A stretch of DNA of 64,000 nucleotides from Antedon mediterranea. Taxonomy: Eukaryota; Animalia; Echinodermata. The stretch spans positions 2,124,422 to 2,188,421 of the forward strand of contig NC_092678.1 of assembly GCF_964355755.1 (NCBI RefSeq), written 5' to 3'. Positions 1-53,600 of this stretch are shown piece by piece. The position numbers and the translations under genes were made by a program. Numbering within the stretch: position 1 is the stretch's first letter; every line of letters begins with the position of its first letter. The notes beneath the pieces were generated by a model that was given only the letters and a program-made list of their open reading frames with translations, was not told the DNA's origin and did no database searches.

Positions 1-348
1 ACAATTTAGAGAACAATAAAATTATGACAACTAATAATGAAGTTTATGAAAATAAATACTCGTCAGAATTTTCCTATAGGCATACAGTTGGAAAGATCTC
101 ATTCTCTATCCTATTAGTTAGAATGCAATTTAAAAACAGACCAATTATATCAATAAACCACTCTTAAAATTATATAGCGAACTCGGTTCTGTTTTCTAAG
201 ATGGAAAATATAAAAGAGCTTGTGAATATTGTACGCCCAGTTAAAAAAAAATATATTAGAGAAAACTTAGTAAAATCCCTTTAAATTTGGATAAATCTAT
301 AATTAAATACATGTGTTGTAAGAAATCAAGAGATAGTATTATCATTAC

Positions 349-511
349 CTTGGTGAAACGTCTGGAATGACTGTTCCCGGGGTAAAGAATGGAAAGACTA
401 TTGGTGGAATAGCCGCCTCACACGTGCACACTGCGCAGTCAACTTGCTGAGAACCTCTATCGGATATCAGTACTTCCTCTCCTTCGTACGTTTTGGCAAA
501 ACAGTCTCCAT
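349..511 (-). CDS. Cys-rich gene exon 8 (type B, 163 nt)
   Basis: Paralog of exon 6 with the same length; donor AG|GTAAT, so the gene continues beyond position 1. Confidence 0.85.
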
Positions 512-3500: not shown

Positions 3501-3711
3501 TTTCAACACATATTGTACTGGATGTTCTAACTCGACTTGGTTTATAAGTAAATGTGCCATGGTAGTAGGTGTACCCACCAACGCAAAAACAACCAAACGT
3601 ACAATCTGGAATATCTTCTTCTGCCTCGTAGTCTAATGGTGAACATTTGAGCGCGGCAGTCGCCCTGTCCAGAGGAACTAGAAGAACAACAAACAACAGA
3701 AAGCGATGCAT
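349..3711 (-). CDS. Secreted cysteine-rich protein with tandem VWC-like two-exon modules (3' part outside window); exons 3426-3711, 2984-3158, 2400-2611, 2035-2203, 1642-1853, 1344-1506, 696-907, 349-511
   Basis: ATG at 3711 followed by a signal peptide (MHRFLLFVVLLVPLDRATA). All exons have AG/GT boundaries with alternating phase 1/2 and join into one open frame. Repeated CTxGCFC...LC...C...C..P...CGCPxC and GDCFAK...CAVCTC motifs. The VWC-like (VWC2L/brorin-like) assignment is inferred from cysteine spacing only. Confidence 0.85.
696..907 (-). CDS. Cys-rich gene exon 7 (type A, 212 nt)
   Basis: Paralog of exon 5 with the same length and phases; overlaps ORF 631..852. Confidence 0.88.
1101..1264. 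mobile_element. MITE family A copy (TIR AGCTCTGTCTACACTATCAAAC; PIF/Harbinger-like)
   Basis: Inverted termini and internal GTGATGTGCCCAAATATGGTAGTGATATG shared with other copies in the window. Confidence 0.75.
1344..1506 (-). CDS. Cys-rich gene exon 6 (type B, 163 nt)
   Basis: GDCFAKTYEGEEVLISDNGPQQLDCAVCTCEAASAPIDLPIFITGIAIPAVPP. Confidence 0.85.
1642..1853 (-). CDS. Cys-rich gene exon 5 (type A, 212 nt)
   Basis: KATCDYSRCACNGFDEALIYDKIADIPECTFGCFCIRSEDQTLCIDPAPCLVSNICQHPEEGACGCPVCE. Confidence 0.88.
2035..2203 (-). CDS. Cys-rich gene exon 4 (type B)
   Basis: GDCFAKSFEEKDVLISDNGPQQVGCAVCTCDAPSQPIVLPFFSATILDLLPPLPK. Confidence 0.85.
2400..2611 (-). CDS. Cys-rich gene exon 3 (type A, 212 nt)
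   Basis: KATCDYSQCPCHGHPSEQVFETVADIPQCTLGCFCIRSESATLCIDPAVCKVDNKCFKPDHHVCGCPICD; CAG acceptor, GTTAG donor. Confidence 0.88.
2676..2929. mobile_element. Degenerate Harbinger-like MITE
   Basis: AGCCTAGTCTACACTAG ... GCAAACAAGGCT imperfect TIRs with TAA on both sides. Confidence 0.5.
2984..3158 (-). CDS. Cys-rich gene exon 2 (type B)
   Basis: NDCAAEHPDGREVIIRGGSAEAVGCAVCTCNLPEPAEPCPGCGFKLFLGLLKESPQR; TTTAG acceptor, AG|GT donor. Confidence 0.8.
3426..3711 (-). CDS. Cys-rich gene exon 1 (signal peptide + first Cys module)
   Basis: MHRFLLFVVLLVPLDRATAALKCSPLDYEAEEDIPDCTFGCFC...CHDCPDCGG; donor C|GTAAG, phase 1. Confidence 0.88.
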
Positions 3712-3765
3712 ATTGAAATTGATTTCACTCAAACATCGGTTGCATCAAACTGCTCCTACAACTAC

Positions 3766-17600: not shown

Positions 17601-20600
17601 ATTAAATGCACATACAGTTTTAGCTATCTTGACTTACTCGCCAGGGAACTAAAGTCATCTATGTTATATTCAAAATCCTGTTGCTTAGATGGTATTACTT
17701 TAAAAAAAAATTATCACACATATTGTTTAAAATCTTATAAAAAGTTATGGTATATTTGGCATAAAAATCTATTAAAAAAACTGTAAAGTTATTAAAATAA
17801 AAGAAAATGAATTAATTAATAAATAAAGATTTGAACCCAGAATGTTCTGCTTGATATGCAGACATCCTAAGTTCATGGTATGGTTCAATTGGATTGGACA
17901 GCGACTAGTTTTAGCCTTTTTAAAAAACAATATAATTAATTATAAAATGAAATTATTAAAATATATGTTTGGTAAACAATCAAGAAATAATTGCTATATC
18001 TAAGAAAACAAATGCATAAATAAACTAGACATGTAACTCGTCACTTTGATGAGTTAGTTATCCGCCCGACAAACGCCACGTGCACGTCATACGTTGGAAT
18101 ATTGCACACAGAAAAAGATTATGGCATTATGACCTGAACTGAAGAATATGATATGTTGTTATTGCTGAATTCTGTTATTTTGTGTCATATAGTATACACA
18201 GTATAATCTGTATACATATCACATACAGTGTAGAATAGGTGAAAATATGGGACCCGCTATTTATTCAAATTTTTAACATGTTGACAGTTTCAAAATGAAA
18301 CTCAAATGTAGCAATTTCGGAAGGAAATTATCTCAGCAACAACATATTAACGTGTTGAAGAAATTTGAATACGTGAAATATTGATGCACTCTCTTTTAAA
18401 TGTAATGAACTATGACGCAAAAGATGAAAATACGACTTTTTTATTTAACTGGCCATATGATGACGTCACAACATCCGATTGGCAAAATGTTAACATGATT
18501 TCATATCTACAATCCAATAGCATCCAATAGCTTCCAGAAAACGTTTTAATCGTGATTATCACATTTTATTTTGACAAGCTATAACAGATTAAAATTTACT
18601 GTAAAGATGAAAATACGTGATAATATGATTTACATTTTTAGACATGATGACGTCATAAAAATTAAAATATTGTTAACTCATGCGAAAGATATTTGATTGA
18701 CCTAGACAATATTAAAATCTCAGAGAAAATGTAAGACGAATAAGTGGAGATGCGCTCCATTGAATGTGATGAGCAAAAACGAAAGAGACAAAAATCCTAT
18801 ATTTTACATTTGTGTGGCCATACGATGACGTCACAATGTCCGGTTAGTCACATTACTGTTTGATATCTACAACTCATCAACTTCCAGAATACAAAATGAA
18901 AATAACTTTCACCGTTTAGTTTAGAAACTACGACTGTTTAAAAAAAGGCATAATTTTGACAAAATTTTGAACTTTTTCATCAAAAAAGCACGCAAATTGT
19001 CCAAATTCAGCGTGCTCGTATGACGTAATTTTAGGTTGAAATTGTTTAAAAGTTGGTAATATTACTAGAAAAGGCTGGAAAAACATAAATCACCCAAAAA
19101 AATATGTTTTTAACGCTACATGCGCTCCACATTCTGCGCGTGCGTGGGAATTTAGAAATTAATTTTGCTCATTTTAAACTTTTAAATGCGCGTGCGCGCG
19201 TAACTTTGTGTAAAACACACAATTAAACGCAAATTAAACTTTTGCAAAGTTTCAAGTTAAAATGTTATTTGGTTTTTGACCTATGTTAAATACGCAACAT
19301 TCATAAAATCGCGCTTAAGTCACGTTGCGCAATTGTAAACATTCTGAAAAGGTTCGCTGCACAACTTCATATGAATGGCGATATGTTGAGAAAGTTACGA
19401 AATGTTATGTTTGCAAGTTTTACAGATACGCGCGACACAAAAAATTACAGAAAGAAAGAAGATAAAGAAAAAAAAGATGTTGATTTCGTACAATCACAAG
19501 GAGTTATCCTGCAACTTTGTTGCGGATAACTAATTTTAGTAAATTATAGTAGAATCTCCTATTAAGGAGTCACCTGGGAGGTAACAAAATGTCCCTTTAT
19601 AGGGGTGTCCTCTAAATAGTATGGATGCTACTCTATAATAATGAAAAGATGAAAATAATGATCATTCAATTGGCATAAAATAAACAGTATTAATATATTT
19701 TCTGTATATAGTAAATATTAATAGAAATTATATAAATAATTAATGATAATATTATTCTGCTCCATTAGCATCATGACCAAATCTAATAAGTGAGTACTAG
19801 GTATGGTAAACGACTTTTGTCCTCTGACCATTGAATATAAGATAGTGCTATGTGATAAGCAGTAATCTACATACTAAAATAATTTTACAGCAGAACTCCT
19901 TTTAAGTGGACACCATTGAAACCTAATCTCTGTGTGTAAAAATAAAATCATGCAGGTGTGAAAGTAAAGACACCCATTGTCAGTAAACAAAATGCATGCA
20001 ATAAATCCCAATTCTGTATCACTGCAGATAAGAAAGCTGTCATGCAGTAAGCACAGATATTTCTAAAAAAAACTTTGATTATTAAGTAGAATTCCAATAT
20101 GCTTTGTGGTGATTACCTTCTGTTGAATTGGCGGTCACTTTACATGTAAAATTACTGTCTATAACTTGGTCTAGAACTGTGAAGAGTTTAAACCAAATTG
20201 TATAAACGTTGACGAAACAGGAAACTAGTATTTATATTATTTATTGCATGACCTCTGGGGTCCTACTATAGTCCAATAATTACTCTACTCTAAAATAATT
20301 TATGAATAGTTCTTTTTACTCTCAATGTGATACAAAAATATATATTCATTATTAATAATTAACTAATAGTAATGTTATACTATCAATATGTAGCATGTTA
20401 CACAATAGAACATGAGGGTTTTGGGTTGAAATCATGGCATAGTCACATCAATATGTAGCATGTTACACAATAGAACATGAGGGTTTTGGGTTGAAATCAT
20501 GGCATAGTCACATCAATATGTAGCATGTTACACAATAGAACATGAGGGTTTTGGGTTGAAATCATGGCATAGTCACATCAATATGTAGCATGTTACACAA

Positions 20601-26600: not shown

Positions 26601-29600
26601 TTTTCCATGCTATTAATAATTGTTTTTTTTTTTTCCAGGCAGTACGAGAAAGCTACCAACTTATATAGTCACATGACCTAGCGGCAGACTATACCACTTT
26701 CTTTTTTTATACAGATAATTTTATTTTTCAAATACTAAGCCAAAATAATGTGCTATAGACAGTAAACAGTTCGGGACGCATGCTCCCTAATGCAATTTGA
26801 TCTTTTTCCGAAAATCATGGGGACTCATTTAATGTGTGCTCACTTTGAGACTACAATAATTGAGTTACTAAAACGTATTTCCTATATATCATATACCGGT
26901 AATTTATGCAAATTTTCTTGTTTATTCAGAATTTAATTGTGCAAAAGTGGTGAAAATAAACAGTGCAACTAGGAAATGAAAGCGTGTCTGTTACTGATGA
27001 ACCACACTGAACATTTACAGATGTTATCCTGGTTTAACATAGGTCAAAGTGCAAAGGTAAAATTCAGTCACATGACTATTCTAACTTTGGTATCATTCTC
27101 AGGATTTGAAATGCAGCTCCATTAAATGTTATGTATGAAATGGAACTACAATTTAATGGAACTACTTTTTTTGTATCAAGTTAGCAGCTTTCACAAAAAT
27201 GGATTTTTTTTGTAGTTGTTTTATTTTCCGTGCAAGAGTCTATGCAGAGCTTTCGTTAATGGATGGATGCGTTTTCTGAATTAGCATAACAGTGATACAG
27301 TAGTATTTTCGGCATACATGTTTGTGAAGCATTCAAGTGGTTATGTACCTTCAAAATAGGCTCAATTTCTTCCTGGTATGCCATGAGAAGTTGAATGATC
27401 GTCAAGAAATGATTTGATTAAAATGAAATATTCAACAACCAGTTGGGGTAATAGATTATAGGGATCGGAATGTAATGAAGAAAAAAGAAACAATCATTCT
27501 ATTCTGCATATAACATCATTGTGTATTATTGGGGGCACACCCAAGAGAAAATTTGTTGAAATCCGCAAATTTTTTGTTTTATAAAACAGACAATTTTGAA
27601 TGATTAATATGATAAATAAACGTTCAAAATTGTCTTGTTAATAGTTAGCAATTGTTTGGTCTAGATTAATTTCAGGCAATATTTCATGGAAATACTAAGC
27701 AAAATTTGTGAGAAGCAAAACAAAATATGTGTCCGTGGCCTAAACCATTATGCGTGAGACAAACTGTCCAATCTGAAATTAAGCTACAGTGCATTACAAA
27801 TTGAAGCACACTTTACAAACAATATGGGACAAGAAAATTAAAGAAAATGACAACACGCCAACATTTCATTAAACAATTTACTAAAAAGCAGACTAAATTT
27901 GGCGAATTGTTTTTGTCTGAGTGGATTTAATTTAGAAGACTGTAAACAAATACAAAACCTTCTGCCCTTGAACAATTCAAGGTCAGAGGTCACACAAACG
28001 TGAACGATCACAATCAAGACACTCAAACCACTCAAACAAAATTGCAAATGTTCGTGTTTGTGATATATGTAAATGATTTTTTTTTAATAATTTTGTGTGA
28101 CAAAATGTTTCAGGGCCATTATTATTATTTTGAAACATTTTATTACCATTTTAAGGTTCATAGTGGTAAAAGTTAATCTTTTGTCTTAATATAAAATAAT
28201 TTTAAAAAATATCAAAATTTCTTCATAGCAGCAAAACGACTTGCTTTTTTATAGATAACTGTTACCACAACCCCTGAACACATATATTTGTTATCTTGCA
28301 ACTTAACATTTTATCAGAACCAGAGCCTGAAATTAAGGCTTAAACAATTTGGAAAGGTCAAATGGTAAAGGTCAAATGGTAAAGGTTATCAGAAGTGAAT
28401 ATATTGTTTCTTCTTTCAGTAGAAAATTCTGAAGATAATGCTAATGTTGCCCTGTGATAGGTGGTTGCCACACTCATTTATAATTTGGATGCATGAAAGA
28501 AAAGAAGATAATAATCATTAATGCACCCTTAATTTGTTAAATTATTCATGCTGATGGCCAGTACATCTCATTAGCATAATTGGCTTTAGAATTAACAGGG
28601 TTAAAACATTTCCCAAAAACAGATTGGACAACCTTTTAACCAATAATGAAAACCCGTAGCCCTGGTTAAAAGTGGAAGAATCCAAAAAGAGTATAATATA
28701 ATAATCTGTAAGTGTTGGTCTTTATTGTTAAGGTTGGGTAAATTTTAACATAACGATCATCATTGAAGAACAGAAAAAGGACTTTAAAGCAAGAAACCAT
28801 CACAAAGCAAGTAAAAAGCCAATCCATTTTCTAATGTGCTACGGGGTATTATAAATTTGCAGCAACTTGGGCAGTCTCGGACATTAAAGGAGTTGGCACA
28901 TCCTTATTAGGAAATCTATGGAGCAATGAGGCAAGTTCTCACATATAACATCAGTACATTAAACATCTAACATTACTAAATTTGTCACAATTCTACTTGG
29001 CAATCGTTTTATTCAATTTCTATGAATATTGTTCTAATAGCCTAGTAAAAAGCGTTTTCTAATTTGAAGCTTAGCTAGCATAGCTTAGGAGAAGGAGGAC
29101 CTTATAGATATGAAGGCAGGTAGCTTATAGCATGGGGGATTGACTTGGGAAGGGTGGGTTTCTTTTAAAATCCTCAAAGATTGATTTTCCCTTTAATGGG
29201 ATTTTTGGGATGGAGGTTGGTATAATCTTAATTAGGATGCCCATTCATTTTTAAAAAGTAATGAGGCCCATGTAAAACCTTAAGCTCAGTCTACACTATC
29301 AAACTAGTTTGACAAAAAAAAGTGTGATGTGCCCAAATATGGTATTGATATGACATTATCGTGTCTATATATAAGCACATCATAATCTTTTGTCACATAA
29401 AGTTTGATAGTGTAGACAGAGCTTAAGTGCTGCCTTATGGTTAAACTTTGCGACTGTGATGCCGGGATAATTTATGGCTGTAACAATATCTATAGAAACT
29501 AAAAAGCATTTCAATTTTTGCTTGAATATTTTTCCCAGTTATTCAGTGAGAACAACCCTCAATCATTGTATTACTTTTAAGCACATTTTTTTTTTGGAAA

Positions 29601-32600
29601 GAAATTTCATGCGAAAGACAAAAATCACTCACCTGGCCTTTGAGTCGTGGATGAATGAGAATGTAACCGTTGCTGTTGATTCCGAATGCATACCCTTCAG
29701 GCCCAATCTGGAGGTAAACAAATAACATCAACAAAAATGTTTTTAATAACATGATTCAAAAATACACCTTTAAACGAGAAGTATGATATTTACATTTTAA
29801 AAATCAAGGGTTAAGTTATGAAATTATTAAAATATGAATACGATTGTTGATTTTGTTTTTTTATTTTCATTTCATTATAAATAAAAATTTGTTGATATGT
29901 TTCAAGAGAACAAATTTGCAGGATTTTAACCCAAACTTATGGTAGAAAAACAAAAAGATAACTGCTATGCTGTATGTATTACAAACTGTAAGACGAAACA
30001 TGAATCTCTCTGAAGAGTAGGGTGTCACCTGATGTGCTGGTCATTACAACCAGACTGGCAAAAGAGCAGAGTTTGGTGGCAGATAAGAGAGATGATAAGT
30101 TGTTGTATGTGACATCTCGTCAAATGCGCTTTAAGATGGTCATTACTGAATAAGGTGCATTATAAATAATTATTTATTTAAAAAAAATAATTAGCTTTTT
30201 AACCTGTAGAGTATGCTTGATAGAAGAAAAAAATAATTACCTAAATAATAACTAAATGTGTTTTATGTATTGAAAAAAGTATTGAAAATGTGTACATTAA
30301 TGTAAATATATTGAAAAATGTAAAACAAAGAAATAGTACATTTGATTTACATTAGATTAGAGTAATAGAATAGAAAACTAGATTAGTAATAGAACATACA
30401 CTAAAGAAAACAAATGAAGAAATGTATTCATGATTGTACAGGGAAGGGGGGGGGGGGTACTAATTTCTTACCATTGTGTGTAGTGTGTGAACGCAATAGA
30501 AACTTACCATACTCAAAAGTGAAATACAAATAGATAGATAGATACAATGATAGATAAACATGCAAGTGTGAAAAGGGTTAATTATTATCAAATAATTCAT
30601 AAATTTACATTAGAAAACCTAATAATTAAATTTACGAAGTAATACTATACCTACTAATATTTCTACTGATATAAACTATCTTGTATCTACACCAGTAGTA
30701 AATTGTTCATATTAATTATCTTTTTTAAAAAACCATTTAATTATTATACAAAGATAATGTGTAATTAATTTTATATTACAGTTTAAAATTACATCATTTA
30801 ACATTAAAATACACCATTTACAATACCAATTTGTTAACTTAAAACATATAACATGGGAGTATGGTTTCTATACGGAAATCTAGGTCATATTAATTACAAC
30901 AAAATTAAAATACAAATAAATATAATAATATTATAAACTAATTGGAAAATAGGCAACAAAAAGTACCTAGATTTCTTAATAAAGATACAATTTAATTATT
31001 GTTCCTTTTCTTCAAATAAATAAATAAATATACTACCAATTAAAATAAAATTAAATGTAAATAAAAGAGGTATACAGAACTAACTTTATTGAACAATCTA
31101 AAAGAATAATTCCACTCAAGGAATACTAAACATACAGATATGAGCTTGACAATTTAATAAATTGTTTATCAAATGATTTAGCACGAATAGCCAACACAGA
31201 GAACAAATAGCGAAACAAATATACAGTAAAACACAGAAGCTCTAAATTGTGTAGAAAAAAAAATGTTTTGCACATTAAATAATTATAAATAAAATATGTA
31301 CTTAAAGCATAAAAACTAAACATAGAATGGGATGATCAGCCATTTTGCCATTTTGAGTATCTCTAAACATGTATTAAATAATGGTATTCCTGTCTCTGGG
31401 GATAAGCTTTAAAGTCTCCTGGGGTATTAGGCTATTCCAAAGCTCTGTCTACACTATCAAACTTTTGTCAAACAAATTTGATAGTGTAGACGTCTCAAAG
31501 CTTTAGGGTTAAGTTGTCTGGTATCCCTTTCACACTGCCTAGCCTAACTCCAGAGTTTACACACACCTGGGGAGTCAAAGCTAACATTTTGTGAAAGGGT
31601 TATAGGATAAGAATTGTTCTTTCTTTAGGGGAAACACTAGCACGTATTGCTTGAACAGATCTTGAACCAATGTGTGACCAATGTAGTACGAGATGTTTAG
31701 AATGTTGTTGTTGATGATGCTCTAGGCCACAACATAGGGATTTAATATTAGACAATGTATAGCATTACAAAACTTCCCAAAAAAAAAAAGTTTTACACTA
31801 AAAGCACATCTAAATACATACATCAAAACATATTTAAATTTAAATTATTAAAATATGCTGGTGACAAAATGACAGATGTGAAATTAAGCAACTATTGCTA
31901 AAAAAAATCTGAAACGGAGTTGACAACAAAAATCACCAACTTAAGGTGTTGACAACAAAAATCACTAACTTAAGGATTTTACAACAAAAATCTACTGGAA
32001 GAAAACAAAGTGAAAGTCACAAATTTCACCGACATAAACAATATCACCAACTTGTACAAACGATACTGATTACAAATAATTTGACTAGTTTATCGAGGGC
32101 GCCCTGAATGCGTTTTTTTCCTCGGACTGTTTCAAACTTACGCAACGGTAACTGCTATTAAAAACAGGCTGTAATAAAAGAGATAATAATGCATTTTTTT
32201 AGTCTATTTTCCACAAGAAATGTAAATTTGAAATCTTATGTTAAATTTGATATTTTTATTTTTCAGGGGGACATTATTTAAATGGGAAGTGCATATGGAA
32301 CTATATTGAATATTATATTCCTTATTATTGGATACAAATAAACCAATATTTATATTATTGGCATAAGCAGAAGAATCATTGAGATATGAATGGATGAGTA
32401 TTTAAATAAGTATTCATTCTTATCAGTAGTAATTGTGATAGAAGAATGAGGATCTTACATGAAACATTAGTAAGGTAAGATTTTCAGTACACCAATGATT
32501 AACATCATTTAATATGTTAAGAATAACTTGAAGCTTTGATGGTTGTACCACAAAACTGTATCGAAAATCTTACTTTACTATTAAAGATGTTTATGAAATT

Positions 32601-38600: not shown

Positions 38601-41600
38601 AAGTATAATTATGCCAGAGATTTAGCCATTATGTTTGCTATTTTTTTCAAAAACAAAATAAATGAAGTTGAGAATATCGACATTTTGGTTGGGAAATGGG
38701 AAAGTCTTTTCCATTTTAGAAACTTTGCGCCACAAACTTTACTAATTTGAATATTAAATATTTGCACATTACCTGTTTATTTCTCAAATTAGCTTGAACA
38801 AAAGTTGTCAGTTTAGGATCTAGAAATGTTGTGTTGTCATTGAACTGTATAGAAGACAGAAATATGTTATATATAATTTTCATATAATAGCCATATAGAT
38901 TAACATTCTATTCAGCAAAAAAGCCAATAATACACAAAGAGAAATTACTTGTTGGCCACACTGTACAAAGGTTCAATTCTCTCCACCAATAAATCCGGTA
39001 GAACAAGTCTTCTCAGGTCGTGTGCAACCCAATGCATCTTTTAGAAGAATAGTGGTTAGTATGATGTACTGATGTGCTCATCGTTCATGTTAGGCTGCAC
39101 AGTGAACCCTGTAGAAGGCCTAAATCAAATTGATAATAATATAAAACAAACTCACCATTGCTACATTTACAAAGTCATCATCTCCAAGCGTGTCAATTGC
39201 TTCGGAAACAGAAACTTTTATCAAGTTTGAAGTGATGCCACTGGTACTACCACTCCTAATATGGAAAGGTGTTTTGTTAAATAAGCTCTGTCTACACTAT
39301 CAAACTGGTTTGACAAAAAGTGTGATGTGCCCAAATATGGTAGTGATATGCTTAAATATGGTAGTGATATGACATCATCATTTCCATATATGGCCACATC
39401 ACATTTTTTTGTCACAAGTTTGATAGAGTAGATACAGCTTAAAGATGTATCATCCCTCTAAAAATAATCCTAATAATAAAAAAATAAAAAATGTTCTTAC
39501 ATATCCACAAGTATTAGAACGTCTTTTGGTGAGTTGGCCGCACCGATGTACCTGAGAAAAAAAATCAGATTTATATTTGATTATAAAGAATTTAAATAAA
39601 TTAGTATATTATTTTATATTATATAATAAAGTTAAAGCTGGTATTACTATTCTAAGCATAAGAATCCCACAATACAGTCATGTTTAGTGTTTTGGTTAGT
39701 TGTTTCATATTATATTAGGTAATTGGTTAGACTATTGTCGTAATTCTTTGCAATATTTTGTCGTCAAATTTAAAGATGTATTGTCCCGAAAAAACATGAA
39801 AAATGAAGTTTAATAAAATTTTATAATAATAAAAACTAGGCCATTTCACAGTTTTATTTGTTTATGTTTTAATGAGCGTCGAAACAAATTGAAAAATCGG
39901 CTTCGCTTCATTGCAAAAACACATTTTATTTGTTTATGTTTTAATGAGCGTCGAAACAGATTGAAAAATCGGCTTCACTTCATTGCAATAACACATTTTA
40001 TTCATTTTTATTTAACTATATAAGTACTAACTTTCTGCTAACAATTGCTGATCATCTCTAGATTCACATCAATTGTTCAATTTCAATGTAATTTTAATAG
40101 AACATTAAATGAAGGCTATACATGTTTTTAATTACTGTTCTGCCTGATTGCACATTAACATAGTAATGTCATTTTAATGAACCATTCGACAATGCTGTGG
40201 TTTGATGTATGTATGTTTGATTCAAATGCATGTAAACTATGGGAATTCTACTTGACTGCATACAACATAATATTCTAATGCATTTATTTTTAAGTGCTGG
40301 ATCAATAAAATTGATTTTGATAAGAAAGGTGTTAAAACACTCCTTCAATTAAATCCAAAAAAACAGATTAAGCAAACATAGAAACTAGGTCTTAAACAAT
40401 GCTATTTATAAATATATTTTTTTAATAGCTTTTTAGTATTTTGGAGAGTACTGTATATTGTTTGTAGGGCTATCATGGTGATTATATGTTCTTTGATGGA
40501 GTTGGGTTCACGGCAACAAAGTACGCAATAATTGGATAAACCGGTAAATTGATATCCTAAAAATATTGAATTAAATGATGCAAAAGTTCATATAGGGTTT
40601 TTTATATAAATATGTTTTTTCTGATATCAATTTTCTAAATTTGTTTAAAATATGAAAACAATGTTAGAAATTCCGAATCATCTCCCAAATCCAAAGATAT
40701 TGATAAGCCGATATTTGCATATTGATTTTGCCCGTAAAGACCGAGCGACATTCAATATCCCGCCACTTCACCTGTAAAAATCTGCTTCGTAATTGGCCAG
40801 ATTTATGGTAAGGAGGGCAGTTGATGTGTGACATTGTTAGGAAATGGGATTCCATCGTTTGCACTTTAAGTGCTTGTATTGATGTGTCAGTTTCAAGTAG
40901 AAATTCAGAGTCAAACTAAAGTTATATTATTTATCTGGTATGCAATATTAAGCACATGTTTGAAAGTGAACAGAAAATCTTCAATTGGATTACAAATGAA
41001 TATGGACTATAAAAAACTGCATTCGTGCGTATGTATGTACATGATAACAGGACTGCAGACATAACAAAAGGAAGGTGAGTCCATTTTTTCATAGTAATAT
41101 TATTCTTTACACATGGTAATAAGTACCTAGGAATAAGCAATTTTGTAGTAAAGTTATTGCTTACTTGTCCAATTAATATTTGTAACATATAATATAATGT
41201 ATACTTACCTTAACAAAAAATTATTAAAAATTTGTAATAAAAATCTACATAATGCATCACACTACATATATAACATTAAAACGTGCACATTACAATAACA
41301 CTTAGTTTTTAAAAACTGTTATACTACCAATAAAAATACAAAATAAGAAACCACAACACCATACATGCAACTACTGTACAGGAAGTGCCAAGTAAAAATA
41401 TCAATAATAATAATAATAAACATGGCCGGATCAAACGACTAAGCAATGAACAAAGTGGTTATGTTAACCCATGGCTGTCAAAAGTAAAAAAGAACACTTA
41501 GTTTTGATAATCAACTTAGAAACATAAAACAATTTACAAAACAAAATAATAAATAATAGACAATTCTTTCATGTTAAAGTTAGAGACTGTTCATCTACTT

Positions 41601-44600
41601 CTACAAGAAAATGTATGTGTTTTCCTACTTATTACAATAGTAGGAGTAGTCAGTGTGCAAATTTAAAGCATTGAGAATTATTTACATTCCTCCATGTTTT
41701 AACTAATCTATTAAAGCTCTGTATACAATATCAAACTTAATGTGATGTGCCCATATATAGACATGGTGATGTAATATCACTACCATATTTGAGCACATCA
41801 CACATTTTTTTTCAAACTAGTTTGATAGTGTGGACAGAGCTTTAGACCCAGTTGAAGACTAACTTTTTAACAAGTTTATGTATCTAAAAATTCTGTCTAT
41901 ATCCTGTTTTACTTCAGTTTATGTACCTGCTAATGAGCAACGCAGCTATTATTAATATATAATATTCATTAAAAAGGAATTGTAGCAACACACCTGTCCT
42001 GAGATAATGTTTATAATATTATATTATCTTTTATCCTCAAATAAATAACATGGAATACTAAAAAAACCCAACTAACATACATGTTAATAATGAACAAATA
42101 CAGGTGTACATTTTTTTAGATTAATAAAAACATTCCTTGGGAAATTCGGATGGATATACAAAACAACATTTGAATAATTTATATATCTATAAATTGGGTA
42201 TAATAATTATAAAATACAGCTTGACATCAACTAAACATCTAATTTACCAAACTCACAAACTGGCATAAACACTATATAAATACAAACATAGAGAAAGTGT
42301 ATACAACAACTGTATTGGAACATCTATACATCATAAATATTCATGAGACAGAAGGAGGTGAAACACTGAGGGCAGCAAACTCACCAGCTTCTTCGTCTTA
42401 CATCATATTGATCCATTTGTAACTTTTTGCTGAGTTTCCATTTTTTGCCTGGTTTAATGTTTGCCAGGATTGGAAGAAAAATGACATTGCCATGAATTGA
42501 CTGTATGGATAATTTACATTAAATAATCCAGCCACCAAAATGAAATTGAATAAAAAATATTCAGTTGAAAAAAAGATGCATTCAAATAAGATTCTATTAA
42601 AATAATTTTGCTCACGTTTCAAACATATCTATACTGTAAGATATAGCCTCTGTACTCTAAACACATTTTTGTTATTGCACGCATCCATATGCAAAGGGTA
42701 TTAAAATGACTAAAATTAAAGGTTGAAGGTATTAAATTGACAGTTGTAAACCACTCTGGTTTAGTAAACCGCCAGGGGGAGTTGAATCTTTCCAAGTGAT
42801 ACTATAACAAATGCAATAATTAATGTTGTGTGACCGTGGAGGTAAAAATAAAAAAAAACTTTGGTATTCATTGCTAAATAAACAGTCAAGGGTTTTAAAT
42901 TTACAGTTGAAAACCATTCTGGGGTATTAAATCTTTCCTAATGGATACATAAACTTTAAACATAAATCCTTAATGTTGTGTGAGTTAAAAATCCTTTTTT
43001 TTAATTCATTGCTACATAAACATTTGTTTTTAAAAATAAATGCTATAGAAATGTGTGTATATAGTATATATACACATATTAACAGCTAAACATACATTTA
43101 TCACACCCTTTTAAAATCTTTCTCCTATAATTCAGAAGCTCTACATACTTGCAATCCAAATCGGGTTTTTTTTCTCAAGTAAACATAAACTCAAAAGTTT
43201 ATTAGAATTTCCAAATAATCACCTTTTAAAATTGGAAACCAACAACCTAAAGTAGAACTATTTTAAATTCAGACTGTCTGGCTGCAATCGGCCAACTCTT
43301 GTCTAGAAATTCTATAATATGGCAAGGTTACATCATCAAGTATGTAGCTTAGTTTATATCGGAAATAAGATCAGCTAACATAAATGTTAATATACAAAAT
43401 TTACATCTCAAACTAAAAATCCTAAATGACTTCACCAGAGGCAGGTTAAAAAATGTAGTCAACTACAGGACTCAAACCCACGACATCCAGATCACTAGCC
43501 TGGCGTTCTACATCTAGACAACCGCATATTAACATTGTTTATAATAACTACTAAGAGAAGGATACTACATTATAATTTTCTCATATTCTGACGCTTAGCT
43601 TGTTATTGTTATATGCTCTGATAATTTTAAATGAAGAGGTATATTATAAATGCATGTATGAGATGCATGTAATGAATTACTGTGTTAAAACTAATGTAAT
43701 ACTGATTACCTCCTGCATCATATAGATTATTTCAGAGTTAAAGCCAATCTCTGAGTAATTGATACCAATGCTTGAGCTATGTCATACCATTGTGGTTCAC
43801 TTTAAACACTACTCCCAATTTTTACATAAGGCTGTATAAATTCACCCATCCCAAGGAATGGCCTTACAAGTCAGTATGGTAATGACATGTAAATTAATTT
43901 CAAATTTATAAATATAAACAGCAATTTTACTTTCATTTCAGATTCACATAAAAATAAACCTATTTGTTTTGTATATTAATTTAAAAAGGATAAATATATC
44001 TTATTAAAAATATCATATACTAATTCATATCATACAATACAACAATAGTAAAATTAGATTAAAACTATGTTTATTGTACTTCGTCTATTGAAACCACAAC
44101 TATTTTTAGGCCTAATTTTTATGATTAGAGAGTATAAGAATATTTTGAGTGTAAAATCAATATGTAATTTATGCAATTATCGTATGTAAGGATTATAGCA
44201 ATGCATATAGCAACAATTTTATATTTATTCATATTAATCATATAAGATTAGATTATTAATGGAAATGGCAAAAATACATCCAAACACATCAATATTATTC
44301 AGTGGTATTAAACTGTTGTAAATTGTACGACATAGCATCAAAGCAATATATATTAGCATACGAAAGGTTTTTGCAACATAACTATACAGTAGAACGTGAA
44401 GGTGAAGGTGACACATTCAGTACCCAAAAGTCACCTTAACATGGTTGTTCCCTGAATAGGGATTGACTATAATGTTAAGTAAACCTATTGTAATTTTATG
44501 TTTTAAGATAATATCTATTGAAATCATGGGTTAAATTATGGTCCAATGATATGATACCTTCCTTGCAAATGAAATGTGCAGTTCAATTCATACAAACAAA

Positions 44601-47600
44601 AATGCAATGGATGAAAACCACTACTGTATTACACAGTCATATCCATAGGAAATTTCTCAACAGACTTATCTCTTCTAATTCACAACACAACGTAATTTAT
44701 TGCAGGAGAAAATGGTAAAATGTGATAAAGTCGCTTTAATACAAACATGTCACATTTCAGGCAAATTAAACAGCCTTTTGGGTAGTAGTTAATAAGGTCA
44801 CAGATTGAAACACACGCTTCTAACAAAGCATGGTTAGAATAATAACATAGGATTATCTGAAGAAAACAATGTTCTCTACTCTATAAATATCATACAAGTT
44901 GTATTTTTGTAATTCTCGATAGGTATCTGTCATTTCTGAGCATTTTCTAATGTTAAACTAATGGTTTGGTATGACAATAGCATTGTAGGTAGGGATGTCT
45001 GACTAAATGAATAAAAGTTATGAGGATTCTTGAGGCAATTCTACATAAAACCCAATTATAACAATATATTATTAATACGCAAACATTCTTGTTTTTAATA
45101 ATTCTGTATTAACTATAAGTGCAAATTAAGGCTTCTTAAAAAGCTATATAGCTATCTATACTAATATAATTTTATCATTAAAACACAGCACAGCAAAAAA
45201 AAGACACTTTACCCAATTTTCAACTTTTCCAAAACATTTTTGTTGCCGACTTTGTAAATGGGATAGTAGGGAAGGGGAGTGTGTGTTAATTATTAAATCA
45301 TTTCAGCTTAGGTGGACCTTCTCAAGCAACATTTCCAGAACTGTCAAATATTTAAGTTCTGTTTTTAAAAGGTTTTTATTTTAAATATTTTTTAGTTTTC
45401 ACTGAGTTTTTTTGGTGCAAGTTACTGGTAGTTTTTAGGGCCTAAAGTTTCTGGGGCAATTTTTCTTTGGTATTTTATGGTTTTAAGATTTGGAAAAATT
45501 GACTCAGCTAATTAAAAGAAATAAAGTAAGGAATTAAATCTAAATGGTTGAAAAAAAAAATCACTCTTTCTGAAAACAAGCAAACATTTTACCATCGTCG
45601 AAACGTGACCCTAAACAAATCTAGACCAGTTGGATCTATGGGATTTCTTGTACCTGTCACCAGATAGAAAGAAAATCTATTAGTAAAGAATATGGAAATA
45701 GAATGCATAGTATTGTTTATTATTATTATTTATTTTTCTATATTATTACTTATAAATTAAAAAAAATATAAATGCACGAGATCAACAAACCAAAGTAGCT
45801 TAAAAAAACCTCCATGGATCGAAGTTCTACATGCTTTTAGACTAGAACAGACATTTTCAAGTATCATAGGCACATTCTATAATACAATGTCATATATGTA
45901 TCACATGTGACATCTGTATCATGCTTATAGCCTTAGATAAGGTAAATATGACACTGTATTACATAATTTGCCTATGATACTTGCTTGAAATTATTATACA
46001 GTACTATTGAATAAGAAAAATTATTATACAGTACTATTGAATAAGATATTTATCTTATTCAATAGTATGACTAAAATTTACTTTAGTATTTTACTGCCTG
46101 AAGGTTCAGCTATGTTGTCTTGGCAAAAGTCATTTATATAATTATTATAAAATATTCTTATAGAATGCTAATAAATTGGCGGTCCTGCTAGTCTTTGAAA
46201 AAAATTGCCAATTACAGTTGAAGGACACCGAAGGTAATAGAATGTTATGCATGAATGCCTTGGAAAATGAAACTAAAATCTTTCAACATAAAAATTTCAT
46301 TATGTTACGGAGATCTTTTTATCAAATGGATATTTTTTTTTTCAATGCCAACAATTGTTGCATATATCCATCAGTGAATTTCCTGACATGATATATCATG
46401 TAATTTGCAATTTTCTTATTACATTTCACTTAAATTAGGTTTGTGCTATGAAAAGTGATCTCTTTCAATGAAATGAATTCACAACTTAAAACATAACCTA
46501 CTTTTTCATTTTATATCTACAGTAGCTACGAAATATTAGATTTTCTATTCCAATGTAACCTTAAGCCGGGCGCACACTTTATCTATCGGCTGAGACAACT
46601 GGCACAAATAGCTATACTGTGCGCCAGGCTTTAATCAAACAAATGTTCATACTGTATGTATAAAGCCTTACCCATTTTGTAATCAACATAAAATAGGGAT
46701 TTGATTCAAACAAAGTGTTATTAGCCATCATTTGAGCTGTTAACGTCTACATAAAAAATGCGCAGTAAACTTACTTGTTGAAATATACATAATAGTCTAT
46801 GATAGAGGCATTGCCGTAAGGGAGAACTTTGACAACGTAAAGGAGAAAGATAAGGATTTGTCTCTGTATAGGTCTATGTACAGAAATATATCCCTTTGCT
46901 ATTGTACCTGGAGTATTATTATACAGGATGGTATGTGATTAAAATTAATCAACATCTAAATGATTTCTTTCGAAACGCAGAACCAAATTACACAATTTGT
47001 ATCGGATTATATTAATAAGAAAATGATACAACTAGGAGAAATATGATTCTCAAAAGGAATATCATATTGTATATTAATGATTCAATAAATATGAAATCCA
47101 AAGAATTTAAAATATGAAATATTAATGTCAACTACTAGTTTTCAAAATTATTATACTGTAATATCAAGGAACAAAATGTTTTAAAAAAGAAAATGTTGCA
47201 ATATAAAAGTATCCCAAAATTTAACAAAATAAATAAAGTATTTAAACTCAGTTTTAAATTTAAAAATTCAAAAATATTTATGCTCATGTTACATCATTAA
47301 ATCTTTATTTTTAAATCATTTCATCTATTTAAGTCATTGGCCATTTAATTCATATTTGAATCCAATTTTCTTGGAAAGAAAGAGTAAATTGTTATTCTTA
47401 ATGTTCAATAAAATTACCATGATGCACTAAAATTATAGCGATGACGTCGATGAACACGGAAACGCGTTCGTACCAAGGTAGATATTTTTTTTATGATTAT
47501 TCAATTTTTGGAAGTGTGAATTGGGTATTAATGTGATTCATATTTCAAGACATGACTCACACAAATTAATATTTTTACTTTAAAAATAATTGTTAAATGT

Positions 47601-50600
47601 ACTGTAGGCATGATTTTTTTGAACAATCATTTTGTTTTGAACTATAACTTTTCTAACAGGTCTGCCTCCAAATAGCAACCATTCTTTGTTAGCACAAATA
47701 CAATATATGGCGCTATTTCTTTAAAACAAATCTAGACTTACTTATTATAACTAAATACCTGTACTACAATAAAACATGCTCTCCAAAGATTATTTATTGA
47801 AGATGAACAGAGGAAAGGTAATAGAAAATAAATGTGTCTAAAACTGCAAAATACAGTTAAAAACCCTATTACCCATTGCCAAGTACTTTACCCATGTCAA
47901 AAAAAAGGTTTTTTATAGAAGAAGAAAACAAAGAAAAGTTAAATAAAAATTGTCTAAAATTTACAAAATGTGGTGAAAAAACCTCTAATTACCGATTGTT
48001 TTCTAACTACTTTACCGTGTCAAAAAAAAAGTATGTGGAATTTAAAAATGCGGTTACCATGAACGTGTTCGTCTGTCCAACACGTCAACACCGTGCTTGT
48101 TTGTGTGTTCGTGTGGGGATCCTAATATTGCGGAAATTAAGATCCGATGAACACATTATTGTTTACTTGCGTAACTTTTGGCAGAATAAAATTACTCGGG
48201 TTCCAAAACAACCCAGGAAGAGTGAGATTATATGGCAACATGTCGAACCTCACACTAACAGATTACTAAAACATGCGGTACAACCGCTTGGCACCATTGT
48301 ATCATTAACTAATTGTTTAACGTGATTTTACTCGACCCTGGTAATGTATCACCAACTAACATTTCTTGACTATACTGAAAGTTATAACCATGTTTTTAGA
48401 CGTACTTTATAGTAAAGACTTTAATAAACCAACTCTCTGCTGTTTATGCTTATAATTCCATTATAAGCAGAAAATGTTGAGGAAAAAAAAATTGTTAACC
48501 ATGTCAACTATGATAATGTCAAATGGCTTTAACGGAACATAATAGAAAAATGAGTATTTCACATTACACTTTTCAATATTTCAAATAAAAGACATGAATA
48601 AATCAAGAAATACATCATGAAAATATAATGAAAATATATAACCATATGGAATTATTTAAAGATTTGGAAAGATATTGTTAAAATAAAAAAAATGGATTAA
48701 TCACAACAGAAATAATATCGTTCACCTTGATTAGTTTTACCAGTAATATACCATATACATTTCCTTTTGACCCAATATCATAACCGAACAAACATTACCA
48801 TGATGTTCGTCGTCTGTCCCTATCATCAATACCGTGAGCATTTTTATATTTATGTTCAGATCCTGAATGTGGGAATATCCATAAAAGTTGTGATAGCAGT
48901 GGTATTAAGGGAAATTGTTATGTACATAGTATATGCATAGTATAGGAATATATGGTATGTACCAAACATGATAAGGTACTAGATATAATTATACATTGTT
49001 TGAAATTTATTCAGTGTTATATATATATATATATATATATATAAACACATTAGGCAATGAACATTAATTCGAAACCGTATATATATATACAAATCCATCC
49101 AAAGGCAAATTACTGAAAAAAATGACAATGCTGTGGGTATATATATATATACAGTAATACTATTAGACAGATAATTATGAAGGGGAGGAGCTTGTGCATT
49201 GCTTGTTGGAATAAAACGTTAAAATGTAATGTTTTGTTTTGAGTAATATATGATATTGATGATTTGGACATGGAGGTATAAAATAGAAGGAGAGAGCTCG
49301 AAGGTATTGTAGCGCGTTAACAGGATGTCGCCATGGTATTTTCAAAGCCAAAGCCTTGTGCCGACAGCGCGCTGCGCGGACTTTGTTACCAACGTCAGCC
49401 GCCGCCTCTAGTCAGCCCTCTATCACAGAGGAGGTGAGATCCTAAAAAATACACAAACAAACACATATACTTTTGGCATGCGCAGTGCTATTGTTTGTGT
49501 TATAATTGTTGCACAATCAAATGTTTGCTTCCCGCTTAAAAAATCTCTAAATATTGATACCAAACATGTTTACATATGACATTTTAAGCAAATTTTATCA
49601 GGCTCCCATTATAGTTATTATTGTAATTTACTTGCTGTTTATACAATTATATGTATTTCGATAAAATATTAATAGACGTCGTCAGACAGCTGTAATTTTG
49701 TGTGAAGAACACATGGTTATTACTTTACATTCTTACGTTAGTCGTTGGGCTGCCGATGATTGCCGGCCAAAGATATTGACGAAATACATTAGTAGGCATA
49801 TTTCGCGGGTTTGTTGACAATGGATGGGGGAGGTATTCGATTACGAAACCGTGACTAGGTCTATAGTTTTAGGCTAGGGCCGGAGTAGTCCTTGCATAAT
49901 TATTATAATCTAGACTAAAAATATAATCATTGCTGTAGCAGCCATTTTATCTCCTCTGCATGCAGAGTAAACAAGCATGTGACGTCACGTCGCCGATATC
50001 AGGAGGCATGCGCAGTGACTCGGAACGCGACTAGGAAGCGACAACGCGGAGAGGCACACTGCGCGTAACATTGTGTAACATGCTGAGGCGGCGGACTACG
50101 TAGTACAAAGGCTTGTCTTCGGAGCTCTCTCCTTCTATTTTATACCTCCATGATTTGGATCTGTCAATGTTGGTGGTAATGATGGTGAGATAATGATGAA
50201 TAATTAGGATGTGCAATAAAAAGAATTAAAATGATGATGTAATCATGTTCAAATTATGACATTAATATTATCTAATTAATTGCTAAAAGTCTCTTCCACC
50301 TTTATTAGTATTCATTGCACCAGACAGTGTTTAAATTTTAGGGAGGAATATCAAATAATTATTTCTACAACTTCTTTACCAAGATCGTAGTCTGCGGTCT
50401 AAAACATCTATACCATGTTTGTTTCGATGTTCATGCTCCGATCCTAAAATCATTGAGAACATCTTTTTAAATTGACATCTTTGTTAATATTAGAAATCAT
50501 CAACATTTAATATTAGTGATCATTATTTGTGACCACGTGCTTATTATTCTGCTTTGATTGGACCCTTTTCAGTGCCCACAATGTTTGATGTTTGTGGACA

Positions 50601-53600
50601 GTTTATTTACCATGATTGCTTCCTTCGGTCTAATACATCAACACCATATTTGTTTCTTTTTTCATGACGTGATCCTAAATAATATAATAAAATGTCAATT
50701 TCTTGATAGTTACCAATGATTGTGATGATGGTATGATGATGGTTGTTGAGTTGGTGGTATAGATGATGGTATGATGATGGTTGTTGAGTTGGTGGTATAA
50801 AGATGATGGTATGATGATGGTTGTTACGGTGGTGGTATAGATGATGGTATGATGATGGTATGATGATGGTTGTTGAGTTGGTGGTATAAAGATGATGGTA
50901 TGATGATGGTTGTTGCGGTGGTGGTATAAAGATGATGGTATGATGATGGTTGTTGCGGTGGTGGTATAAAGATGATGGTATGATGATGGTTGTTGAGTTG
51001 GTGGTATAAAGATGATGGTATGATGATGGTTGTTGCGGTGGTATAGATGATGGTATGATGATGGTTGTTGCGTTGGTGGTATAAAGATGATGGTATGATG
51101 ATGATGGTGGTATAAAGATGATGGTATGATGATAGCTGTTGCAGTGGTGGTATAAAGATGATGGTATTATGATGGTTGTTGTGGTGGTGGTATAAAGATG
51201 ATGGTTTGATGATGGTTGTTGCGGTGGTGATTTTAAGATATTATTATTGTAACGTTGATAATGCTTTTTTGTAGTAAGTATATGATGGTGCCAATTTTAT
51301 TGAGTAGTATGTCTATTGCTTGGTGGTAACATGTCTTCCAATTCAAGAGTCCTGTGTTCAAATCCTTCCTCTGTCCATTTTAAACGAAAACAGCAGACCA
51401 ATCCAAGCTGCCATTTTGTTTTTATTTCAACCATGTGGTAAACCACATGGTTTACTTGCGTAAAAATTAGGTTTTTGTATTAAATTGTGATGGGTAACTT
51501 TACCTGGGTATGATCTATAGAAGCCTGTTGAACTCCCCACATATTGCCAAAGGAGATCGGTGTCTTTTTCTCTATTGTTAATAAAGATTTCATCAATTCC
51601 GTCTGTTACTTTGATTGCGTTGAGTATAATAGGATCTACAATACACAAAAATAAATATAGTTATGCAGTTAGTATGCAGGAAGTATACAGTACTTATCAT
51701 TATTGGTAATAAACAAATATAATTCTACTCGCAAAGGAGGGTTAGGCAGAAATGTTTTTTTCTTCTAAAAAAGATTTTTTAGAAGACATTTGTTTTAACT
51801 TTCGAAAAGAAGGGTGGAATGGGGTGGGGTGGTGAGGGGAGGATGGGATGGGAGATAAAAGCTGACATATCTATCAACCAGTATAGCTTCTGTCCCTGTT
51901 TTTAGTTTGTTAAATTGTTGTATTTATTTTTTCCTGACCTTCATTGTATATATCTGTAGGTATCTGTACTGCACTCATGTCAAACGTTACATCTTTTCCA
52001 CCGAATTTGTCGTCTAAAATCGATTCATTGGTTATGTTGTTAGCGTTCAGAAAATCCACGTCAGGAAACTGCCAAAAAATTAATTATTTTAATAATTACT
52101 GAAATATTAAATCAACTTATTATTAATACATGTTGAATAGTAGGAATACATGTTGAATAGTAGGGATACATGTTGAATAGTAGGAATACATGTTGAATAG
52201 TAGGAATACATGTTGAATAGTAGGAATACATGTTGAATAGTAGGAATACATGTTGAATAGTAGGAATACATGTTGAATAGTAGGGATACATGTTGAATAG
52301 TAGGAATACATGTTGAATAGTAGGAATACATGTTGAATAGTAGGGATACATGTTGAATAGTAGGAATACATGTTGAATAGTAGGAATACATGTTGAATAG
52401 TAGGAATACATGTTGAATAGTAGGGATACATGTTGAATAGTAGGAATACATGTTGAATAGTAGGGATACATGTTGAATAGTAGGAATACATGTTGAATAG
52501 TAGGGATACATGTTGAATAGTAGGAATACATGTTGAATAGTAGGGATACATGTTGAATAGTAGGAATACATGTTGAATAGTAGGAATACATGTTGAATAG
52601 TAGGAATACATGTTGAATAGTAGGGATACCTGTTGAATAGTAGGAATACATGTTGAATAGTAGGGATACATGTTGAATAGTAGGAATACATGTTGAATAG
52701 TAGGAATACATGTTGAATAGTAGGGATACATGTTGAATAGTAGGGATACATGTTGAATAGTAGGAATACATGTTGAATAGTAGGGATACATGTTGAATAG
52801 TAGGAATACATGTTGAATAGTAGGAATACATGTTGAATAGTAGGGATACATGTTGAATAGTAGGAATACATGTTGAATAGTAGGGATACATGTTGAATAG
52901 TAGGAATACATGTTGAATAGTAGGAATACATGTTGAATAGTAGGAATACATGTTGAATAGTAGGAATACATGTTGAATAGTAGGAATACATGTTAAATAG
53001 TAGGAATACATGTTGAATAGTAGGGATACATGTTGAATAGTAGGGATACATGTTGAATAGTAGGAATACATGTTGAATAGTAGTAGGGATACATGTTGAA
53101 TAGTAGGAATACATGTTGAATAGTAGGAATACATGTTGAATAGTAGGAATACATGTTGAATAGTAGGAATACATGTTGAATAGTAGGAATACATGTTGAA
53201 TAGTAGGAATACATGTTGAATAGTAGGGATACATGTTGAATAGTAGGAATACATGTTGAATAGTAGGGATACGTGTTGAATAGTAGGAATACATGTTGAA
53301 TAGTAGGGATACATGTTGAATAGTAGGGATACATGTTGAATAGTAGGGATACATGTTGAATAGTAGGAATACATGTTGAATAGTAGGAATACATGTTGAA
53401 TAGTAGTTAGGAATGAATTTAAGACTTTTGAATCTATGGAAATTTTTCAGTTTTCTGAAAGTCTTCCATTATGTCATTAACCATTGAATGCATTAATAAA
53501 TATAAATTAAAAATTAATTACTTCTTCGTAAGTAGCATTTAAAGATGAATTTTCTAAAAATTCAACAATGTTCTGAAAGACAAAAAATGAATAGTTTAGT

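Follow-up and report, generated by a model that had tools for sequence, protein, structure and literature searches.

A cluster of alternative exons predicted to exchange one half of the α2δ ligand pocket in the crinoid Antedon mediterranea, with counterparts in other echinoderms

Most of a gene for the calcium-channel auxiliary subunit α2δ (CACNA2D), in humans the target of gabapentin, occupies the minus strand of a 64,000-nucleotide (nt) stretch of Antedon mediterranea DNA (the window, to which all positions refer). A single intron of this gene holds six same-phase copies of one short exon, a canonical form and five variants (v1 to v5). The four His-rich copies v1-v4 are real and, as judged from their nucleotide sequences, under purifying selection. 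The canonical exon, v1, v2 and v5 are each used singly in annotated isoforms, and the same protein segment is exchanged in three other echinoderm classes. On balance we think it probable that the copies are spliced singly and that each choice would swap one half of the predicted pocket, give isoforms their own small ligands and tune calcium-channel trafficking. The locus is a probable mutually exclusive exon cluster, situated where none would have been expected, and its function is predicted.

Membership in the α2δ family is evident from the Pfam domains PF08399 (VWA_N), PF00092 (VWA) and PF08473 (VGCC_alpha2) on the Antedon protein (P0001). The exons of RefSeq isoform X1 map along the window, and the exon at 51504-51635, which is 100% identical to the Antedon mediterranea RefSeq protein, matches α2δ-1 residues 178-220 (human chains). 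Between this exon and the one at 39501-39551 lie the six cassettes, all open, bounded by AG and GT, and either 64 or 61 nt long (Table 1). Scanning both window strands with a motif recovered all six at the intron; the matches elsewhere were one inside a coding exon on the minus strand and two weak, overlapping ones on the plus strand. A profile search with v1-v4 found no fifth His-type copy in the window, the next match being on the opposite strand (E 0.016). Independent contigs span the cassettes, which rules out an assembly artefact.

Table 1. Exons of the α2δ cassette cluster and an inserted element. Residues are those at the positions of W225, Y238 and R243 of rabbit α2δ-1.
Feature	Position	Strand	Remarks
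Constitutive upstream exon, 132 nt	51504..51635	-	Ends one base into a Gly codon
Cassette v1, 64 nt	50611..50674	-	His, Leu, Gln; RefSeq isoform X3
Cassette v2, 64 nt	50380..50443	-	His, Leu, Arg; HxHxxxH; RefSeq isoform X4
High-copy insertion resembling a miniature inverted-repeat transposable element (MITE)	49269..50152	.	31-nt perfect terminal inverted repeats; between v2 and v3; outside the switch
Cassette v3, 64 nt	48799..48862	-	His, Arg, Thr; in 0 of 10 RefSeq isoforms; least constrained copy
Cassette v4, 64 nt	48058..48121	-	His, Leu, Arg; HxHxxxH; in 0 of 10 RefSeq isoforms; strongly constrained in comparisons with v1 and v2
Cassette v5, 61 nt	45593..45653	-	Separate non-His variant; Asn, Phe, Arg; RefSeq isoform X5
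Canonical cassette, 64 nt	42385..42448	-	Trp, Tyr, Arg; in 6 of 10 RefSeq isoforms
Constitutive downstream exon	39501..39551	-	First base completes the motif Trp codon (W245)

Published statements used here and below come from the following sources: PMC8915833, PMC9901441, 10.1101/2022.12.05.519047, 10.1101/2022.10.03.510667, PMC5655503, PMC10761187, 10.64898/2026.09.15.751774, PMC8373072, PMC5703972, 10.1101/2023.04.06.535858 and PMC12303104. In the cryo-electron microscopy structure of rabbit α2δ-1 the pocket comprises W207, V209, Y219, W225, Y238, R243, W245, Y452, D454, A455, L456, T463 and D493. The carboxylate of the ligand is held by Y238, R243 and W245, aided by W225, which sits on a β2-α3 loop missing from bacterial domains, and the amino group is held by Y452 and D493. 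By alignment to the rabbit protein, the cassette spans W225, Y238, R243 and two bases of the W245 codon. The upstream exon encodes W207 and the positions of V209, A217 and Y219 (here Tyr, Tyr and Ser). Constitutive exons supply Y452, D454 and D493, which every aligned isoform has intact, together with the C-terminal Y...D motif. The switch thus exchanges only the loop and the carboxylate side. The dCache_1AA motif YxxxxRxW is complete in the canonical exon only, the corresponding residues being L-R-W in v2 and v4, L-Q-W in v1, R-T-W in v3 and F-R-W in v5.

A preliminary description, made from the sequence of the window, had reported that v1-v4 lose canonical pocket residues, and this is borne out. 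The pocket Trp is His in all four copies; the motif Tyr is Leu in v1, v2 and v4 and Arg in v3; the motif Arg is retained in v2 and v4 and replaced by Gln in v1 and by Thr in v3; and v2 and v4 carry HxHxxxH. Three of the altered positions correspond to W225, Y238 and R243, which are pocket residues of α2δ-1. As a background we used the 148 readable segments among 161 α2δ proteins, which have Trp in 136 cases, Tyr or Phe in 143, Arg in 119, Gln in 20 (v1 included) and Thr in three; Arg to Thr is reported for Caenorhabditis elegans UNC-36. His at the Trp position is confined to two Antedon isoforms and is found in none of the remaining 146 segments. Within the aligned family, the changes from Trp to His and from Tyr to Leu are therefore unusual, and that from Arg to Gln is not rare. 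An alignment-based structure model of the v2 isoform (mean predicted local distance difference test score, pLDDT, 78.5) matches α2δ-1 chains at ranks 1-11, the best being 8fd7_D (E 7e-76); a single-sequence prediction reached a pLDDT of only 32.5 and was discarded. A Trp-less loop also occurs in the α2δ representatives P0071 (Hydractinia), P0110, P0131, P0132 and P0058, which may reflect alternative exons or fixed changes.

Between 48058 and 50674 on the minus strand, v1-v4 are all 64 nt long, bounded by AG and GT and stop-free. Both v1 and v4 encode GVDVLDRR, the five synonymous codon differences between them being exactly those described before, and the surroundings of the copies are unrelated: across all six cassettes, the 30 pairwise alignments of 100-nt flanks from both sides have z ≤2.6 relative to shuffles. 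The purifying selection proposed in the preliminary description was confirmed by pairwise comparison, with ratios of nonsynonymous to synonymous differences (pN/pS) of 0.17-0.65 in all six pairs. Fisher's test gave P<0.05 in five of them (v3-v4 being the exception, P=0.17), and in every pair the amino-acid identity exceeds that obtained when an equal number of changes is placed at random (P 0 to 0.026). A codon model over the four exons gave omega ~0.05, the likelihood being two units down by omega ~0.13, and omega=1 was rejected (2dlnL 40.6, P=2e-10). All these tests use only 20 codons, with synonymous sites near saturation, and compare paralogous copies rather than orthologues.

The copies differ in constraint: pN/pS is highest for v3 (0.39-0.65), which also sits on the longest branch, and v4 is the most constrained copy when compared with v1 and v2 (0.17-0.19). 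It could therefore be argued from the values for v3, and from the absence of v3 and v4 from the RefSeq isoforms, that some copies, v3 foremost and perhaps v4, were once functional and are now silent and decaying, so that v1, v2, v5 and the canonical exon alone are in use. However, v3 and v4 retain AG, GT, length and frame, for which a neutral copy would have a probability of 0.05-0.24 at 0.25-0.5 substitutions per site, insertions and deletions aside, and the constraint on v4 points the same way. In addition, contigs from a second sample show v3 and v4 without a listed difference, while the intron around v4 has six substitutions and one insertion, too few for a test. These contigs, which cover introns, are uninformative on expression. 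We consider decay of these copies highly unlikely.

Among the ten RefSeq isoforms, six use the canonical exon, X3 uses v1, X4 uses v2 and X5 uses v5, while X10 begins downstream; X3, X4 and X5 differ from X1 solely in the cassette slot. RefSeq isoforms of this kind rest on transcript alignments in the NCBI pipeline. Tandem homologous exons of the same phase, as found here, are one mark of a mutually exclusive exon cluster. The intervening introns measure 167-3144 nt, which we take to exceed the length at which steric exclusion could operate. Every cassette has a length of 1 mod 3, so that inclusion of none or of two shifts the reading frame, and nonsense-mediated decay would then enforce one cassette per transcript. 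Splicing of the cassettes one at a time is thus likely.

Several short models, namely P0008 (Antedon X10), P0351 (Apostichopus) and P0344 and P0348 (Holothuria cluster), begin at a Met just past the cassette slot, as would be expected if transcripts without a cassette or with an out-of-frame cassette exist. A single duplex was predicted, pairing the start of the upstream intron at 51250-51503 with the sequence 3' of the canonical cassette at 42235-42384 (z -4.0 from 12 shuffles, -24.5 kcal/mol; one of 24 tests).

The comparison was extended to other echinoderms and to hemichordates by opening the isoform clusters and cutting the equivalent slot out of each protein. Strongylocentrotus purpuratus has the canonical form and two variants. 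Lytechinus variegatus has the canonical form and four, two of which recur in fragments of a second Lytechinus annotation among the 15 of 17 cluster members listed. In the starfish Patiria and Acanthaster one variant was found, with an identical peptide in both, whereas three positions separate the canonical segments of the two; one variant was likewise found in each of two Asterias assemblies. Apostichopus has one variant, present in two annotations, and a Holothuria-containing cluster has one, present in three Logan proteins; the variant peptides of these two sea-cucumber clusters are identical at 11 of 15 positions. Eleven RefSeq pairs were compared in sea urchins, starfish and Apostichopus, and all differ in the slot and nowhere else; in a twelfth pair, which belongs to the Holothuria cluster, allelic or other splice sites differ as well as the slot. 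The sole model from the acorn worm Ptychodera has a non-canonical segment and shares, outside the slot, 74-76% identity with its counterparts in Glandiceps and Saccoglossus, whose segments are canonical. Trp before the last residue is missing from all 20 variant segments and present in all 16 canonical ones; the motif Arg is kept in 18 of the 20 variants and Tyr or Phe in 11, and their length ranges from 14 to 21 residues.

His-rich segments were seen only in Antedon, and a region search with the v1 isoform returned four proteins, none of the His type. We interpret the His-rich copies as a lineage-specific expansion within an older class of alternative exons that lack the Trp. Sharing of the switch across echinoderms goes beyond anything claimed in the preliminary description.

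Since the same segment is swapped in sea urchins, starfish and sea cucumbers, splicing likely switches what the pocket binds. The same observations could be explained differently, if the variants were ligand-blind forms of α2δ in which the pocket is turned off or a surface loop is changed, the β2-α3 loop meeting another partner (an α1 loop or a synaptic protein) and the conserved peptide serving that contact. The Trp that helps to hold the carboxylate is lost in every variant, the length of the loop is variable and variant loops are conserved inside lineages, all of which would fit, as would the described contact of Cache1 with the repeat III loops of α1. On the other hand, the motif Arg is as frequent in the variants as in the family at large, the contact residues D171 and E174 lie upstream of the cassette, and no passage in the parts of the sources consulted places cassette residues at the α1 interface. 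We regard such an explanation as rather doubtful.

Under the preferred reading, a pocket retuned by splicing, a constant amino-binding half (Y452, D454, D493) would be combined with a variable carboxylate half and lid, and pocket specificity would change accordingly with the exon. As the amino-binding half is constant while the carboxylate side changes, the ligands should still carry an amino group. Forms that keep Arg (v2, v4, v5) would have an altered amino-acid spectrum, while v1 and v3, in which Tyr and Arg are both lost, may bind amines or no ligand. Amines are a concrete guess because bacterial amine sensors (dCache_1AM, derived from dCache_1AA) are described as having lost the same Tyr and Arg while keeping the Asp, PacA having Gln at the Arg position. 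Occupancy of the pocket would then set the delivery of Cav1 and Cav2 channels to the surface by α2δ, as proposed for mammals, where the motif Arg is reported to be needed for full channel trafficking, which has been read as a need for bound amino acid.

The ligand assignments of the preliminary description fared less well than its account of selection and of altered pocket residues; at least v1 and v2 are present in annotated isoforms. It had suggested gabapentinoid insensitivity as a mark of v1-v4. The constitutive upstream exon, however, carries V209Y and A217Y in every form, and two papers blame the V209 and A217 positions for the insensitivity of α2δ-3 and α2δ-4. The canonical isoform is therefore predicted to be insensitive too, and the drug argument fails to separate the isoforms. 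An acidic metabolite, also suggested, is an unlikely ligand because the amino-binding Y452, D454 and D493 are constitutive and intact.

A third suggestion, metal ions or protons, amounts to a Zn/Cu site or pH sensor formed in crinoids by His206, His208 and His212 with nearby Glu or Asp, which would gate the pocket or the channel complex. The first His is present in all four His-rich copies, the third in three and the whole cluster in v2 and v4, and His at the Trp position occurs in none of the other 146 α2δ segments. But the number of His residues is one in v1 and two in v3, and of the three His positions His206 alone coincides with a pocket residue. In the v2 model residues 210-216, His212 included, have pLDDT <50; variants of the other echinoderms are without His, and no crinoid orthologue is at hand to show conservation. 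We consider a metal or pH site unlikely.

Several points weigh against a splice-controlled pocket. The 20 variant segments form by eye only about ten related groups and are hence non-independent, and the loop N-terminal to the motif is free in length and varies in sequence between lineages, which would also fit simple loss of a lid. Variants were absent from Diadema (nine proteins), Amphiura (one), Glandiceps (one) and Saccoglossus (two holding the segment), and for the His-rich exons no orthologue turned up, the one other crinoid protein, from Anneissia, being canonical; single models are weak evidence of absence. The tandem genomic layout is seen in Antedon, while elsewhere it is deduced from protein isoforms. 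Isoform use is that of RefSeq models, and v3 and v4 occur in none of these. No docking or selector pairing common to the variants emerged from 24 duplex scans covering 250-300 nt of each flanking intron end in one species. Finally, added Trp or Phe alone is reported to have no effect on surface level.

Further from echinoderms, no variant was found in Branchiostoma (16 of 17 segments readable, with 15 of 20 cluster members listed), Lineus (eight), Saccostrea (three), Acropora (six of seven) or Eptatretus (two), nor among 103 further, mostly vertebrate representatives, each of which holds a canonical-type segment in its representative sequence. A wider proposal is possible, though we make it only tentatively: in echinoderms, perhaps in all Ambulacraria, the α2δ pocket may be a splice-programmed chemosensor with a canonical amino-acid form and a lineage-specific repertoire (up to five variants in Antedon, four in Lytechinus), the His-rich set of crinoids reading amines, metal or pH.

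Reviews treat as an open question why α2δ has an amino-acid pocket of bacterial type and what its natural ligand does. Duplication of the pocket exon, with copies retained as alternatives and conserved between classes of echinoderms, is an argument for selection acting on the chemistry of the pocket. The cassettes also amount to a set of naturally occurring pocket variants, carried by a scaffold that is otherwise constant, which is open to binding assays and to splice blocking in sea urchin embryos. If true, a splice-programmed chemosensor would provide evidence, taken directly from evolution, that the pocket bound by gabapentinoids works as a sensor and is no relic. We found no description of the α2δ pocket-exon switch in the open-access literature, most subscription papers and supplements being outside the search; material relevant to novelty and to where the loop lies may be contained in Dataset S3 of PMC8915833, in the exon tables of PMC8373072 and of PMC5703972, and in Fig. 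S4 of the gabapentin preprint. It is the pattern that is new, as the isoform sequences are already public RefSeq predictions.

Some further features of the window were recorded. Tandem repeats at 50710-51280 and 52110-53450 (units of ~40 and ~24 nt) flank the upstream exon, the first array starting ~35 nt ahead of the v1 acceptor. Two stretches were rejected as additional cassettes: that at ~47419-47482, considered as a decayed seventh copy, matches the donor end of v3 at 14 of 15 bases but has only 6-13 of 64 matches without gaps, contains stops and gives no nhmmer match, and a GATCT..TTG|gtaa stretch within the MITE-like element (~49390-49441) contains a stop. A second pair of alternative exons of the α2δ gene on the minus strand, at ~20115-20177 and ~17640-17700, maps around the second dCache domain and distinguishes X1 from X2, neither being present in X9. 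Two minus-strand micro-exons of nine and eight codons (~32140-32170 and ~27350-27372) are omitted in some isoforms, and optional stretches resembling them were seen in one sea-cucumber protein pair. A further gene downstream (345-3744, minus strand) has tandem blocks of repeated Cys-rich exons (CTFGCFC, CGCPVC) that look VWC-like by eye.

Vertebrate α2δ-1 to -4 (CACNA2D1-4) resemble the Antedon protein in fold, in pocket positions, in the full YxxxxRxW of the canonical exon and in the constitutive Y...D. In vertebrates, however, the pocket is varied between genes, while in Antedon it is varied between splice isoforms, and the splice regions A, B and C described for vertebrate α2δ-1 are located elsewhere than the cassette slot. 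A catalogue of 236 human mutually exclusive exon events does not mention the name CACNA2D in its main text. The bacterial dCache_1AM sensors are comparable with v1 and v3 only, in that Tyr and Arg are lost while the aromatic residue at the Trp position and the Asp are kept; from the published descriptions, their change occurred between genes, with an insertion and extra residues, whereas in Antedon it occurs between splice isoforms of one animal gene, which is not classed as dCache_1AM. The closest parallels in exon organization are Dscam1, FGFR IIIb/IIIc and the CACNA1 pairs, in which homologous same-phase tandem exons, also present in Antedon, are used one per transcript and alter a binding surface, as is predicted there; the choice between FGFR IIIb and IIIc is reported to alter ligand affinity. 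A docking site of the Dscam type was not found in the 250-300 nt of flanking intron ends in Antedon. What sets the Antedon cluster apart from these systems is that six copies of 61-64 nt are involved, that they belong to a channel auxiliary subunit and that they encode part of a predicted small-molecule pocket.

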